The notes beneath the pieces were generated by a model, which saw only the letters and a list, made by a program, of their open reading frames with translations, was not told the DNA's origin and searched no databases. From IMG/VR virus record IMGVR_UViG_2695420687_000013, positions 1-7,496 of that record: DNA of 7,496 nt; one strand, 5' to 3'. Source of the stretch: a virus (taxonomy: Duplodnaviria; Heunggongvirae; Uroviricota; Caudoviricetes). How positions within the stretch are numbered: the first letter of the stretch is position 1; each line of letters starts with the position of its first letter. The position numbers and the translations under genes are program-made. Positions 1,123-7,364 of this stretch are shown here, piece by piece.

Positions 1123-1821
1123 ATGGGTTCCACCAGAAAGGGGATGCTGAACGTTTTGATTGCCGCCGTATTATGGGGGAGTTCCGGTGTCTGCGCACAA
1201 TACATCATGGAACAAAGCCAGATGTCGTCGCAGTTTCTGACAATGACACGTCTGATATTTGCTGGCTTTATTCTGCTGACGCTCTCATTTTTTCACGGCG
1301 ATAAAGTCTTCTCGATAGTAAAAAATCATAAAGACACCATCAGCTTGCTGATTTTTTCCGTGCTTGGTGCGCTGACAGTACAACTGACCTTCTTACTAAC
1401 CATAGAAAAATCAAATGCGGCTACGGCAACGGTACTACAGTTCCTCTCGCCAACAATTATTGTGGCGTGGTTCTCGCTGGTTCGTAAATCGCGCCCAGGA
1501 ATTCTGGTATTCGCCGCGATCATGACGTCGCTTATCGGTACTTTTTTGCTGGTGACTCACGGAAATCCCACCTCACTCTCGATTTCTCCCGCAGCACTCT
1601 TCTGGGGAATCGCCTCGGCTTTTGCTGCTGCGTTCTACACCACTTACCCCTCTACGCTCATTTCTCGCTACGGTACGCTGCCCATCGTCGGCTGGAGTAT
1701 GTTGATTGGTGGTCTTATCCTGCTCCCTTTTTATGCCAGGCAAGGAACAAACTTTGTNGTTNACNNNANCNTNATNNTGTTGTCAGGGCGGCGTCGCCGT
1801 CAGACCTTGCGGAAAAGCTGA
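1123..1821 (+). CDS. yicL: EamA/DMT-family inner membrane transporter, 5' portion; reading frame runs into ambiguous bases at 1758-1777 and the tail after that is not reliable
   Basis: ATG at 1123 preceded by GAGGG (1113-1117); an upstream in-frame ATG at 1108 is the ORF-track start. Translation is polytopic membrane protein with a DMT-type N-terminus ([12 protein letters not shown]). Only about 215 reliable codons before the N-containing stretch; the final 14 codons ([13 protein letters not shown]) are probably read from unrelated sequence. yicL assignment rests on family features and setC-yicL synteny recalled for E. coli K-12. Confidence 0.55.
1758..1777. other. Cluster of ambiguous base calls (N interleaved with called bases) at the boundary between host-like and phage-like sequence
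   Basis: Directly visible: gtNgttNacNNNaNcNtNatNN. Upstream sequence codes a transporter; downstream sequence codes phage late proteins in a different frame. Confidence 0.9.
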
Positions 1822-1862
1822 CACACAAACTGAAAGAGGGCTGGCAGCCGTTTGGTAGTCCG

Positions 1863-3608
1863 GTGGCCATAACCCCTTATACCCTGATGCAGGCGATTAC
1901 AGCAGAAGGTGATGTGGTGGTCAGTGGTGCAACTGAGCCGGATTGGTACTACGTCATCGTACTGGCCGGGCAGTCCAATGCCATGGCTTACGGTGAAGGG
2001 CTTCCGCTGCCGGATTCATACGATGCTCCGGATCCGCGCATTAAACAGCTGGCGCGCCGCAGTACAGTGACGCCGGGCGGGACTGCCTGCAGATATAACG
2101 ATATTATTCCGGCCGACCACTGCCTGCATGATGTGCAGGATATGAGTACGCTGAATCATCCGAAGGCAGACCTGAGCAAAGGGCAGTACGGCTGTGTCGG
2201 CCAGGGTTTACATATTGCCAAAAAACTGCTCCCGTATATCCCGAATAACGCGGGGATCCTGCTGGTACCATGCTGTCGTGGTGGTTCGGCATTCACCCAG
2301 GGCGCGGAGGGGACATTCAGTGCGGACACGGGGGCCAGCCAGGATTCGGCACGCTGGGGTGTGGGTAAACCGTTATATCAGGACCTGATTGCGCGCACTA
2401 AAGCTGCATTACAGAAGAACCCGAAAAATGTGTTGCTGGCGGTGTGCTGGATGCAGGGAGAGTTTGACATGAGCGCCGCCACCCACGCACAGCAACCTGC
2501 GCTGTTTACAGCCATGCTGACACAGTTTCGTGCTGACCTCTCCGTGTTTAACGCGCAGTGCCATGGTGGCAGTGCTGCAGATGTGCCGTGGATTTGTGGT
2601 GACACGACGTATTACTGGAAAAATACATACGCTACCCAGTACGACACCGTGTACGGCGGGTATAAAAACAGGGAGAGTGAGGGCGTTTATTTTGTGCCCT
2701 TCATGACAGACGGTAACGGCGTCAATACCGCCACTAACGCGCCGGCAGAAGATCCGGATATTCCGGCATCAGGATATTACGGTGCGGCATCGAGAACGAA
2801 TGGAAACCAGGTATCATCAAACCGCCCGACACATTTCAGTTCATGGGCGCGCAGGAGCATTATTCCGGATCGTCTGGCAACCGCTATTCTGAACGCAGCC
2901 GGGCGCACCTCCGCCTTCATCAGTGGTAAGGCACCGGAAATTAAACCCTCGCCCGGCGGCAACACGCCATCGGGTCCGTCTGCAGATACGTCCGTTCGCA
3001 CAATCTCCCTGCTGCCGGCAGCCGGAGAGGCTGCTGCGCAGGGCTGGAGCATTAAGGATGGCGGAATTCAGTTGTCAGATGGTGTATTTAAGATCACCAA
3101 GCAGAGCAATAAAACCTGGTCCCTGACGCATCCGGTGGATGACGCAATTACCCTGCTGACACAGGGCGGCAGACTGACCTGTAAGTTCCGCCTGTCAGGC
3201 GCACTGACCAACAATCAGTTCGGGCTGGGGATTTATCTGTATACGGATGCTCCCGTTCCTGATGGTGTGGCGATGACAGGTACCGGTAATCCGTTCCTGA
3301 TGTCGTACTTCACTCAGACCACTGACGGCAGAGTGAATCTGATGCATCACAGGAAAGCCGGAAACACGAAGCTGGGGGAGTTCGGCGATTACGGTAACGA
3401 CTGGCAGACGCTGGAGCTGGTGTTCACCGCCGGCAGTGCCACGGTTACTCCGAAACTGAATGGAGTGGCTGGCCCGGCATTCCAGGTCATAAAAGACAGT
3501 CTGACACTGGGGCTGAATGCACTGACGCTGACGGATGTTACAAAAAATGCAGCGTATGGCGTTGAGATAGAAAGTCTGGTGCTGGAGATAAATGCACCCG
3601 CAGCATAA
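1863..3608 (+). CDS. nanS-p: Prophage sialate O-acetylesterase (NanS-p-like, SASA/DUF303 esterase), 5'-truncated
   Basis: 581-aa ORF from GTG 1863 with the esterase block VIVLAGQSNAM (GQSN motif) near the N-terminus and a long C-terminal domain. The same frame is open upstream to about 1779 (..[22 protein letters not shown]..) with no start codon, so the true N-terminus is missing. Sits upstream of the holin, as nanS-p homologues do in lambdoid/Stx prophages. Stop TAA 3606-3608. Confidence 0.8.
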   Translation: MAITPYTLMQAITAEGDVVVSGATEPDWYYVIVLAGQSNAMAYGEGLPLPDSYDAPDPRIKQLARRSTVTPGGTACRYNDIIPADHCLHDVQDMSTLNHPKADLSKGQYGCVGQGLHIAKKLLPYIPNNAGILLVPCCRGGSAFTQGAEGTFSADTGASQDSARWGVGKPLYQDLIARTKAALQKNPKNVLLAVCWMQGEFDMSAATHAQQPALFTAMLTQFRADLSVFNAQCHGGSAADVPWICGDTTYYWKNTYATQYDTVYGGYKNRESEGVYFVPFMTDGNGVNTATNAPAEDPDIPASGYYGAASRTNGNQVSSNRPTHFSSWARRSIIPDRLATAILNAAGRTSAFISGKAPEIKPSPGGNTPSGPSADTSVRTISLLPAAGEAAAQGWSIKDGGIQLSDGVFKITKQSNKTWSLTHPVDDAITLLTQGGRLTCKFRLSGALTNNQFGLGIYLYTDAPVPDGVAMTGTGNPFLMSYFTQTTDGRVNLMHHRKAGNTKLGEFGDYGNDWQTLELVFTAGSATVTPKLNGVAGPAFQVIKDSLTLGLNALTLTDVTKNAAYGVEIESLVLEINAPAA

Positions 3609-3615
3609 TAAAAAA

Positions 3616-3645
3616 AGCCAGCGCCCACTCTGAAGGACGCTGGCT
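3616..3645 (-). terminator. Hairpin with an intrinsic-terminator shape only when read on the minus strand (stem followed by U7)
   Basis: AGCCAGCG (3616-3623) and CGCTGGCT (3638-3645) are exact reverse complements around a 14-nt loop; A7 precedes it on the + strand (U7 after it on the - strand), and aaaac follows on the + strand. Just after the nanS-p stop. Confidence 0.3.
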
Positions 3646-6235: not shown

Positions 6236-6705
6236 GCATAAACCGAATGCTTTCCGCGTTTACCGTTATTCTGCTGGTGGTCTGTGGTGCGCTTAGTCTG
6301 GGGCTGAATCATTACCGCGATAACGTCATCACCTACAAAGCGCAGCGCGATAAAAAAGCCAGAGAGCTGGAGCTGGCAAACGCAACCATTACTGATATGC
6401 AGGTGCGCCAGCGCGATGTTGCTGCGCTCGATGCAAAATACTCGAGGGAATTAGCCGATGCGAGAGCTGAAAATGAAACTCTGCGTGCTGATGTTGCCGC
6501 TGGTCGTAAGCGCCTGCGGATCAACGCCACCTGCTCCGGTACCGTGCGTGAAGCCACCGGCACCTCCGGCGTGGATAATGCAACCGGCCCCCGACTGGCA
6601 GACACCGCTGAACGGGATTATTTCATCCTCAGAGAACGGTTGATGACAATGCAGAAGCAGCTGGAAGGGGCACAGGACTATATCCGCACTCAGTGCCTGA
6701 ACTAA
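6232..6705 (+). CDS. Rz: Rz i-spanin (inner-membrane spanin subunit)
   Basis: Near-collinear with lambda Rz as recalled (NHYRDNVITYKAQRDKKARELELANATITDMQVRQRDVAALDAKY...ADTAERDYFILRERLMTMQKQLEG), with N-terminal TM LSAFTVILLVVCGALSLGL. Start is either GTG 6232 (157 aa) or ATG 6247 (152 aa). The ORF-track start at 6139 is an upstream-ATG artefact. Confidence 0.88.
   Translation: MSINRMLSAFTVILLVVCGALSLGLNHYRDNVITYKAQRDKKARELELANATITDMQVRQRDVAALDAKYSRELADARAENETLRADVAAGRKRLRINATCSGTVREATGTSGVDNATGPRLADTAERDYFILRERLMTMQKQLEGAQDYIRTQCLN
6458..6643 (+). CDS. Rz1: Rz1 o-spanin, outer-membrane lipoprotein embedded in the +1 frame of Rz
   Basis: 61-aa ORF wholly inside Rz in another frame; lipoprotein signal with lipobox LVVSAC; proline-rich mature part CVKPPAPPAWIMQPAPDWQTPLNGII closely matches lambda Rz1 as recalled. 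Alternative start ATG 6473. Confidence 0.85.
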   Translation: MRELKMKLCVLMLPLVVSACGSTPPAPVPCVKPPAPPAWIMQPAPDWQTPLNGIISSSENG

Positions 6706-6974
6706 GTTTTGCTGATGCGCCGTATCGTCGCTGTATTCCCGCATTAACAGAGACCGCAGCCCGACCGGGAGACTCCTCTTCGCGAGTGTGCGGGGATAAT
6801 CAAAAACGATACACACCGGGGTTTACCGCGTTAACGGAGCGCGGCGTTGCCCCTCATAGTCGCCTGTCCGGTGCGATGGTGGAAGAAGCCGGACGATGTG
6901 TTACCTCGCAAGCCCTGTTATGTGTCTGATTTGTGATTTAAGTCGGATAATTGTCGTTGCCATCAAGCAGAGGA

Positions 6975-7017
6975 TTGATGACCGACAGGGTGGCATTGTT
7001 AGAATAAGACTTATTCT
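6975..7017 (+). promoter_or_regulatory. Candidate sigma70 promoter with a perfect 8-1-8 inverted repeat, upstream of the TonB-C-like lipoprotein gene
   Basis: TTGATG (6975-6980), 19-nt spacer, TAGAAT (7000-7005). Inverted repeat AGAATAAG-a-CTTATTCT at 7001-7017 overlaps the -10 and predicted transcript start, 15 nt before the ATG at 7032. Spacer is longer than optimal; prediction by eye only. Confidence 0.3.
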
Positions 7018-7031
7018 TATCTGTGCCGGGA

Positions 7032-7364
7032 ATGAAAATGAAAAGAAATCTTCCGTTAATTATTTTGTTGTCTTCTCTGGTTATGGGCTGTACGCAACAT
7101 AAAACAGATATGCCCCGACAGTTGGTTAAGGCATTACCACAATATCCGGCCTATGCAGCGGCAAATTATATAAAGGGACGGGTTGATGTGAAGTTTGATA
7201 TTGGTGCTGATGGTACTGTCACCCGAATTGAGTTTATCCGTTCAGAGCCGCACCATCTGTTTGATGAGCAGGTTGTAAAGGCGATGGCAAAATGGCGATT
7301 TGAGAAGGATAGGCCGCGTAAAGGCGTGAAGAAAACGTTTATCTTTAGTCCTTCTGCACCCTGA
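7032..7364 (+). CDS. Prophage lipoprotein with a TonB C-terminal-like domain
   Basis: Signal peptide MKMKRNLPLIILLSSLVMGC with lipobox VMGC and Thr at +2. Mature region LPQYPAYAAANYIKGRVDVKFDIGADGTVTRIEFIRSEPHHLFDEQVVKAMAKWRF matches the TonB C-terminal signature as recalled from E. coli TonB (PQYPARAQALRIEGQVKVKFDV..DGRV..WRY). Alternative starts GTG 7023 or ATG 7038. Stop TGA 7362-7364. Confidence 0.75.
   Translation: MKMKRNLPLIILLSSLVMGCTQHKTDMPRQLVKALPQYPAYAAANYIKGRVDVKFDIGADGTVTRIEFIRSEPHHLFDEQVVKAMAKWRFEKDRPRKGVKKTFIFSPSAP

Follow-up and report, generated by a model that had tools for sequence, protein, structure and literature searches.

What are the extra genes that crowd around the lysis genes of a lambdoid prophage, and why do they lie there? 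The question is raised by a 7,496-nucleotide (nt) stretch of caudoviricete DNA, positions 1 to 7,496 of IMG/VR record IMGVR_UViG_2695420687_000013 (hereafter the window, meaning that whole stretch), in which the lysis genes S, R and Rz share a strand with an esterase gene, a YdfR-like gene, an antirepressor-like gene (ant), two micro open reading frames (ORFs) and a gene for a lipoprotein with a TonB C-terminal (TonB-C) domain. An earlier note on this DNA had named these genes and read the region as an accessory hotspot. The named genes were all found where it had placed them, with strong Pfam or PHROG family matches, and its observation was partly confirmed, being right in its main lines, mistaken on some points and already known. 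We conclude that the block very probably represents one uninterrupted segment of a late operon under Q control, that of a 933W/Stx-type lambdoid prophage without stx, in Escherichia albertii, and that its gene boundaries are recombination joints at which optional modules are exchanged among co-resident lambdoid prophages.

As we would assign the slots, this copy carries, before S, a NanS-p esterase, an antisense gene for the small RNA (sRNA) PasC and a terminator; S and R are separated by YdfR, R and Rz by a terminator-like hairpin, a KilAC-domain gene of the Ant-like kind and a pair of micro membrane ORFs, and the TonB-C lipoprotein lies past Rz.

A lysis cassette with polymorphic junctions

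The prophage block (window 1778–7445) was 98.3% identical end to end to a complete prophage of E. coli FORC_042, where it is flanked by Q–tRNA–TerB–DUF3927 and YlcI–HNH–terminase–capsid genes. Q lies 1.5 kb upstream of the esterase in that prophage, and the corresponding upstream part falls outside the window. The complete block was present, at 98% identity, in 163 of 5,426 complete E. coli genomes. All of its ORFs were intact and 94–100% identical to their counterparts in a prophage with a full morphogenesis module, and for an E. coli prophage of 98% identity NCBI annotates this same set, minus Rz1 and the smaller micro-ORF, of 31 amino acids (aa).

At the core of the block stand four plus-strand lysis genes. 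S (3901–4107; PF04971, E = 1.2e-32 over the full length, with a PHROG holin match) encodes a class II, P21-type holin, presumed to be a pinholin; R (4507–5040; PF00959) encodes a phage lysozyme; Rz (6247–6705; PF03245, E = 5e-50) encodes the i-spanin; and Rz1, the o-spanin lipoprotein gene (6458–6643; PF06085, E = 1.7e-21), is embedded in Rz in the +1 frame. Because the translation of R has a Gly/Ala-rich, weakly hydrophobic N-terminal segment (YGLSAAVLALIGAGASA) and the catalytic triad E-x8-D-x5-T, we class it as an endolysin of the signal-anchor-release (SAR) type, with release behaviour predicted from these features; 933W R, employed as a SAR endolysin by the Young laboratory, belongs to its family. 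The cassette had been called canonical S–R–Rz, and S, R and Rz/Rz1 are indeed all present, but their sequences place it with the pinholin/SAR-endolysin/two-component spanin type of P21 and 933W and not with lambda's holin/soluble-endolysin version.

The genes had also been described as co-oriented, with short or overlapping spacers, and here the description fails. From the esterase to the lipoprotein the spacers measure, in order, 292, 4, 50, 273, −4 (an overlap), 2, 11 and ~330 nt. Three of the eight are thus long (esterase–S, 292 nt; R–ant, 273 nt; Rz–lipoprotein, ~330 nt), two of these contain terminator-like hairpins, and the antisense PasC gene had been overlooked.

We placed the window genes by tblastn on 80 IMG/VR viral-contig loci in which R is at least 93% identical; as these are the best R matches of a single collection, with redundant strains included, the frequencies they give are rough. 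Gene order was not invariant across the 80 loci and every junction was polymorphic, so that ‘hotspot’ is a fair word. The S–R junction came in 22 distinct lengths and held nothing (a 4-nt gap, six loci), YdfR (the commonest content), YdfR fusions of 116–329 aa, an unrelated gene of 185 or 223 aa, minus-strand genes of 87–122 aa (without Pfam matches) or insertion sequence (IS) elements. The R–Rz junction came in 20 lengths, from 306 to 1640 nt; about 25 loci had no ant, 13 had an unrelated P22_AR_N ant of the 933W kind, one had an IS element and few had a KilAC ant like that of the window. Between the esterase and S, 19 loci were empty, 15 (the window included) had a PasA/PasC-type sRNA gene with a terminator and 18 had a DUF1378 and DUF826 pair. 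Past Rz, the TonB-C lipoprotein gene was found in 8 of 67 loci, a PerC-like gene in 13 and a minus-strand YlcI/YnfO gene in 49.

When the S–R and R–Rz classes were crossed, 66 loci yielded 32 combinations, and adding the esterase–S class gave 28 combinations in 43 loci. This comparative map shows that the slots re-assort freely; the window itself otherwise adds nothing new. Parts of the cassette occur in 5,251 of the 5,426 complete E. coli genomes, at 19,440 places, including the ydfR–rrrQ segment of the K-12 Qin prophage. The ~200 nt immediately 3′ of Rz (6706–6900) retained 79–100% identity in 51 related loci, with the lipoprotein gene present or absent, and the RNA fold of the 200 nt after Rz was no better than that of shuffled sequences (z = −0.34).

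Sequence comparison with known phages and prophages resolves the block into a mosaic of published or annotated pieces. Phage 933W (NC_000924; esterase L0105/NanS-p) has the order esterase–S–R–ant–Rz/Rz1 on one strand, as in the window, with S, R and Rz of the same families and ant between R and Rz behind the same ~170-nt leader. Its differences from the window start upstream, where stx2AB and tRNAs are found; PasC is replaced, between esterase and S, by an ORF annotated as hypothetical (relatives in its spacer class bear a DUF1378 and DUF826 pair), YdfR is missing (the S–R gap is 4 nt), ant is of the unrelated P22_AR_N type and, past Rz, bor stands on the opposite strand instead of the lipoprotein gene. 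Prophage PP5 of the enteropathogenic E. coli (EPEC) strain E2348/69 (NC_011601.1, ~1,288,980–1,295,880) matches the window in its esterase, minus-strand PasC 2 nt past the stop codon, terminator and holin–lysozyme–Rz order, with a near-identical esterase–S spacer, and has a TonB family protein past Rz, before the terminase genes; it differs in having two IS elements between PasC and the holin gene, an RrrD-type lysozyme allele that overlaps S and Rz, no YdfR, ant or micro-ORFs, and a Rz–TonB spacer of ~1 kb. In the cryptic Qin prophage of K-12 (essQ–ydfR–rrrQ–rzpQ), YdfR adjoins the lysozyme gene as in the window, with 85% nucleotide identity over ydfR–rrrQ, whereas this prophage lacks counterparts of the esterase, ant and TonB-C genes and has a DUF2514-type gene at the spanin position. 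Phage 434 (OL657226) shares the esterase, a PasA-type sRNA region, the terminator, the class II pinholin, the SAR endolysin and Rz/Rz1, but is compact, with overlapping S, R and Rz, no inserts, and a minus-strand bor/iss-like lipoprotein gene past Rz.

That the late region of Stx-type phages is variable and laden with accessory genes is already known (PMC8136144, which surveyed the lysis cassettes of Stx phages; PMC10462455; a preprint on the Pas sRNAs, bioRxiv 10.64898/2026.05.13.724894; and PMC3594210, for the moron concept). The region between Q and the terminase genes matters because in Stx-type lambdoid phages it carries Shiga toxin, NanS-p esterases, Pas sRNAs and Bor-like lipoproteins, and it is a main route of virulence and fitness gain for E. 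coli and E. albertii. The present analysis singles out two widespread, unstudied passengers in it, namely the TonB-C lipoprotein (in ~8% of complete E. coli genomes) and a small membrane ORF before Rz.

The ends of the window call for separate treatment, as its flanks are most likely an assembly chimera and, as such, uninformative about integration. The non-phage flanks comprise a yccM fragment (1–126), the 3′ part of setC with the 5′ part of yicL (127–1764) and, past the block, a hyuA fragment (7446–7496). The setC′–yicL′ piece is 99.4% identical to E. albertii NBRC 107761 and only ~83% identical to E. coli; flank pieces and block were nowhere adjacent among the 5,426 complete E. coli genomes. 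At the joint between yicL and the esterase (1758–1777), each of ten Ns marks a mismatch between E. albertii yicL and the 5′ end of the esterase gene, and all called bases match yicL, including the four called positions at which the two genes differ. A second IMG/VR contig, L003, matches the window without a difference (100% identity) over 127–1724 and 1778–5659 and is thus a sister assembly of the same strain. In L003, setC is intact upstream, yicL and the esterase are joined at another point, via ‘NNN’ followed by 43 nt of native esterase leader and an ATG, and there is an additional N-marked chimeric joint inside ant. Since the flanks and the joint would be assembly artefacts, the missing start codon of the esterase is probably not biological.

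Integration of the prophage into yicL was considered and ruled out, given that the Ns fall where yicL and the esterase disagree, that L003 joins the two elsewhere via NNN and that the remaining flanks derive from yccM and hyuA. The case cautions similar scans against taking chimeric flanks for an integration site. A tRNA scan of the window found none.

Transcription, selection and rival explanations

Lambdoid late genes are transcribed from pR′ by a Q-modified, terminator-resistant RNA polymerase, and stx and nanS-p lie in that transcript. By analogy with lambda and Stx phages, Q-modified polymerase starting at pR′ would, on induction, pass the internal terminators of the block; all plus-strand genes would then be made along with S, R and Rz, and their products would be freed at lysis. 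In the absence of Q, the two hairpins, upstream of S and downstream of R, would shield the lethal genes from upstream or moron promoters, so that in the uninduced lysogen the terminators would keep S, R and Rz silent while PasC would be transcribed independently off the other strand.

Published expression values for uninduced E2348/69 (DESeq2 baseMean; PMC8550237, Table S2) fit the proposed insulation. The value for pasC was 1294 and that for the esterase 46.7, followed by lysozyme (8.4), the TonB-family gene (3.1), holin (3.0) and Rz (0.9); hence just PasC and, weakly, the esterase are demonstrably expressed in the prophage state. The co-expression from the late transcript that had been proposed for all the genes is accordingly plausible only given Q antitermination over the internal terminators. 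The suggestion that the extra genes serve lysogenic conversion holds in part: roles have been published for NanS-p and PasC, but the lipoprotein homologue is as silent as the lysis genes in uninduced E2348/69, which gives a conversion role for the lipoprotein no support, and such a role for ant, YdfR or the micro-ORFs would be conjecture.

Selection separates the core from most of its cargo. Pairwise pN/pS over the fetched variants was 0.10 for R and 0.12 for S, which are under strong purifying selection, and 0.24 for the lipoprotein gene, which is clearly maintained. Rz, overlapped by Rz1, gave 0.42. YdfR (0.56), the 31-aa ORF (0.58) and the second micro-ORF, of 43 aa (0.63), are loosely constrained.

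Several points weigh against reading the block as a late-operon segment with exchangeable modules. Neither Q nor pR′ nor any structural gene falls within the window, whose flanks are unrelated pieces of chromosome, and membership of this copy in an inducible prophage cannot be demonstrated. Passage of the polymerase through the three hairpins is something that we infer, and the junction frequencies have the roughness of the set of loci from which they were drawn. Furthermore, not all of the extra genes are as optional as had been supposed: the slots vary, but a small hydrophobic ORF ends no more than 45 nt from the Rz start in 71 of 73 loci, regardless of what else the spacer contains, and behaves more like a core component than like optional cargo.

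This near-constancy would also be expected if some of the extras (the small membrane ORF or ORFs before Rz, YdfR, the lipoprotein) were unrecognised lysis parts that tune endolysin release, spanin function or lysis timing. Up to four of the small ORFs stand in tandem before Rz; in the window the packing is tight, an ATGA overlap being followed by 2-nt and 11-nt gaps; accessory membrane proteins of SAR endolysins exist, for example the Mu gp25 releasin (PMC9239132); and the PHROG label of the lipoprotein family is ‘Rz-like spanin’. We nevertheless consider a lysis role unlikely, because plaque-forming phages manage without these parts: 434, with its overlapping S, R and Rz, lyses without the ORF that abuts Rz, and 933W, with 4 nt between S and R, has no YdfR. 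YdfR and the micro-ORFs are under weak purifying selection, an internal stop codon interrupts the 31-aa ORF in four loci, none of the candidates resembles the Mu releasin family DUF2730 (no Pfam matches), and the lipoprotein lacks the C-terminal transmembrane (TM) segment of a unimolecular spanin in a cassette that already has Rz/Rz1. The same weak selection, together with the unrelated chromosomal flanks, the unreadable esterase start, the IS elements that break the same junctions in some relatives and the near-silence of the lysis and TonB-family genes in E2348/69, could instead mark a decaying cryptic remnant whose extra ORFs are mostly junk or pseudogenes. This we judge improbable, in that the odd flanks are traced to assembly (L003 disagrees at two joints and retains the native esterase leader and ATG), the ORFs are all intact with close counterparts in a prophage that has a full morphogenesis module, S, R and the lipoprotein gene are under clear purifying selection, and PasC and NanS-p have been validated experimentally in other systems (PMC8550237, PMC10462455).

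Prophage late regions and junctions are also known to carry defence and exclusion genes, and the earlier note had proposed anti-phage functions; the lipoprotein and the Ant-like protein could, as a matter of inference, interfere with other phages. A search of ten window proteins against 5,027 PADLOC models gave no match at E ≤ 0.01, each insert is one small gene in which Pfam shows no nuclease, NTPase or sensor domain, and a literature search found no paper tying them to defence. It is thus highly improbable that the region is an anti-phage defence island of dedicated immune systems. Exchange of modules within a late operon remains the reading that we prefer, and the modules are described below in their order along the block.

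Modules between the esterase and Rz

The plus-strand esterase gene (1758..3608; DUF1737, SASA and DUF6645 in Pfam) is readable from 1779, the coordinate at which the earlier note had begun the region, but this is not where the gene starts. The product is 99% identical to WP_024216036.1 of a related locus (L001), whose ATG maps to window position 1758; the ATG of the window copy would therefore lie within the N-peppered first 20 nt (1758–1777), where it cannot be read. The protein matches phrog_143 over its full length, its translation contains GQSN and WMQGEFD motifs, and its architecture of DUF1737, SASA (SGNH) and C-terminal domain agrees with the description of NanS-p in PMC10462455. We class it as NanS-p type, with activity on Neu5,9Ac2 predicted from the family. 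In that study nanS-p was up by 1–2.4 log with mitomycin C, was co-expressed with stx2a and supported growth on Neu5,9Ac2 (PMC10462455).

Convergent with the esterase and ending 2 nt past its stop codon is the minus-strand PasC gene (3610..3687), identical at 76 of 78 positions to PasC of E2348/69 (NC_011601.1, 1290909..1290832). The published 25-nt PasC Northern probe (CGCTGGCTAAAACGGGTAGATGTAC; Pearl Mizrahi et al. 2021, PMC8550237, Table S6) corresponds exactly to window 3629–3653. A terminator scan placed a minus-strand terminator at 3645–3616, and in the predicted fold unpaired sequence separates a hairpin at the 5′ end from a terminator hairpin with U7 (−30.2 kcal/mol, z = −4.7). By sequence, then, the window carries a PasC gene, for which expression and Hfq dependence are known from E2348/69, where PasC is an Hfq-dependent pathogenicity-associated sRNA (PMC8550237). 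The gene order esterase–PasA/PasC–holin–lysozyme has been described by Zhu, Shabalina and Storz in the preprint cited above. An Rfam scan of the whole window at E ≤ 1 returned no match because PasC is absent from Rfam. PasC was also unannotated in the RefSeq records inspected, and the PasA type occupies the same slot in phage 434 and other relatives.

On the plus strand, an intrinsic-terminator-like hairpin with a T-run (3819..3860, stem 3819–3845; −21.6 kcal/mol, z = −3.5) ends ~40 nt short of the start codon of S. E2348/69 PP5, FORC_042 and phage 434 have it unchanged, and in the last of these the depositors annotate a terminator at this place; among the compared loci the hairpin travels with the PasA/PasC module.

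The optional insert between S and R is a plus-strand gene for a YdfR/DUF1327 protein (4112–4456; PF07041, E = 1.2e-45). No PDB sequence matched it. An AlphaFold model built from 23 sequences had a pLDDT of 64, falling below 50 in the C-terminal third, and Foldseek found no PDB structure below E 0.07 or above TM 0.45 for it. In relatives the domain is fused to variable C-terminal extensions (176–329 aa; L018, L029, L059, L075 and L076; proteins P0039, P0069 and P0102), and holin–YdfR and YdfR–KilAC fusion ORFs are present in databases, which suggests that YdfR is a modular N-terminal domain.

In the R–ant spacer, all variants share a conserved stretch of ~95 nt past the stop codon of R (window 5041–5172; L007 7625–7675), which is followed, ~100 nt past the stop, by a plus-strand terminator-like hairpin (5146–5172; −18.8 kcal/mol, z = −3.9). 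All variants have a hairpin at this position. In relatives without ant, its stem sequence is unrelated and forms a classical terminator, and this occurrence of a different hairpin at the same position argues for a functional terminator there.

The Ant-like gene (5314–6009, plus strand; phrog_63), the optional R–Rz insert, encodes a KilAC domain at residues 125–224 (PF03374, E = 2.7e-28); residues 1–124 have no Pfam match, that is, no Bro-N, AntA or P22_AR_N domain. The KilAC ant occurs in 229 of the 5,426 complete E. coli genomes; among the fetched loci, L001, L009 and L073 have it complete, in L003 it is cut short and L017 has a version of 88% identity. KilAC and unrelated P22_AR_N ant genes have in common a leader of ~170 nt up to the ATG (window 5173–5316; L023 and L083, the latter being 933W), so that the module boundary lies at the start codon and the shared leader may be a common regulatory region. 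A study of the Phi24B ant was dropped as evidence for the window gene, since in Phi24B ant is located before qut and not in the lysis cassette (PMC3064807).

Two plus-strand ORFs, each with a single predicted TM segment, complete the R–Rz interval. The 31-aa ORF (6006–6101; weak phrog_6632 match), the start codon of which overlaps the ant stop codon in the sequence ATGA, shares a WKF[IL]L[IV]W motif with relatives, and its coding status is uncertain. The 43-aa ORF (6104–6235; phrog_4906, E = 7e-24; WP_001280923.1 in L001) ends 11 nt before Rz and stays open throughout the 15 nucleotide variants seen in 49 loci. The small ORFs that abut Rz in related loci fall into two tail families, one ending in ...IRWW and the other being the 43-aa ...GL[VL]G type. 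The family was found in E. coli only, is always annotated as ‘hypothetical’ and is without a Pfam entry.

The TonB C-domain lipoprotein

The optional gene past Rz (7038–7364, plus strand; PF03544, E = 5.6e-15) encodes a protein of 108 aa. A signal peptide with a lipobox (..LVMGC) precedes a complete TonB C-terminal domain, and the lipobox Cys is followed at position +2 by Thr (Ser in the family's other allele), which predicts sorting to the outer membrane. Residues 26–104 align without gaps to residues 153–231 of E. coli TonB (E = 4.5e-16), a span that includes the PQYPA motif and the last strand, that which pairs with the TonB box in the BtuB and FhuA complexes (TonB structures 1U07, 2GSK and 2GRX); TonB Q160 and R166 are replaced by L and Y. 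Thus the lipoprotein and TonB have the C-terminal domain in common, but a lipid anchor takes the place of TonB's N-terminal inner-membrane anchor and proline-rich periplasmic spacer. As both of the latter are missing, the protein is a TonB_C-domain lipoprotein and not a TonB.

The gene is present in 415 of the 5,426 complete E. coli genomes, and in 345 of these it is at least 99% identical, a degree of identity that we read as recent spread. The family comprises 32 sequence clusters and two alleles, and those of its members that have a named source all come from E. coli.

PHROG places the family under the label ‘Rz-like spanin’ (phrog_1267, matching window 7029–7364 over its full length, E = 2e-42). 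We tried the lipoprotein as a unimolecular spanin and rejected it: it does have a lipobox, yet its C-terminus (..KKTFIFSPSAP) lacks hydrophobicity and forms no TM segment, and the body of the protein is a TonB_C domain. Since that segment is missing and Rz/Rz1 are already present, the label is probably a mis-annotation.

Could the lipoprotein act as a TonB mimic at the periplasmic face of the outer membrane, occupying TonB boxes and conferring superinfection exclusion or immunity as a decoy? The idea draws on the complete TonB C-domain behind a lipobox, on the pN/pS of 0.24, on the recent spread of the gene and on the inhibition of TonB-dependent transport by a periplasmic TonB fragment, which PMC9841981 credits to Howard et al. 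2001. Mainly because the homologue is silent in uninduced E2348/69 cells, and also given the replacement of TonB Q160 and R166, we regard the decoy as unlikely. If true, it would block the TonB-dependent entry of T1/phi80-like phages, colicins and microcins, a mechanism not previously described for a phage gene. A literature search for a prophage TonB-domain lipoprotein found nothing.

Small outer-membrane lipoproteins encoded by phage morons, namely lambda Bor, T5 Llp and Cor of phi80 and N15, provide an analogy, and bor occupies the same slot past Rz. The TonB-C lipoprotein has no sequence relation to any of them, is co-oriented with the late genes, unlike bor, and has a TonB C-domain instead of being a receptor plug-binder; the target that Llp blocks is FhuA, a TonB-dependent receptor (PMC9586334).

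Upstream of the lipoprotein gene, a promoter scan found a plus-strand promoter-like site (6978–7005; ATGACC-16-TAGAAT, with an upstream TG forming an extended −10). A TGT[T/C]AGAAT island is retained in an allele of 71% identity, though the flanks have diverged; the E2348/69 value of 3.1 lends the site no expression support. A perfect 8-bp inverted repeat (AGAATAAG-a-CTTATTCT, 7001–7017) overlaps the −10 of this site, is absent from the 71%-identical allele and may be an operator or a 5′ hairpin. LexA and Fur boxes before ant and before the lipoprotein gene were looked for by eye only, and nothing convincing was seen. Downstream of 7364 the terminator scan found no terminator-like site in the 81 nt of prophage sequence that are left there. 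In PP5, the Rz–TonB intergenic region gives rise to a minus-strand RNA (L085, 1294679–1295039) that is chimeric with MgrR in RIL-seq tables; this stretch is an insertion absent from the window. The top promoter-like match of the region (TTCACA-16-TATAAT, 11 of 12 positions) lies at 7192–7165 on the minus strand, antisense inside the lipoprotein gene.

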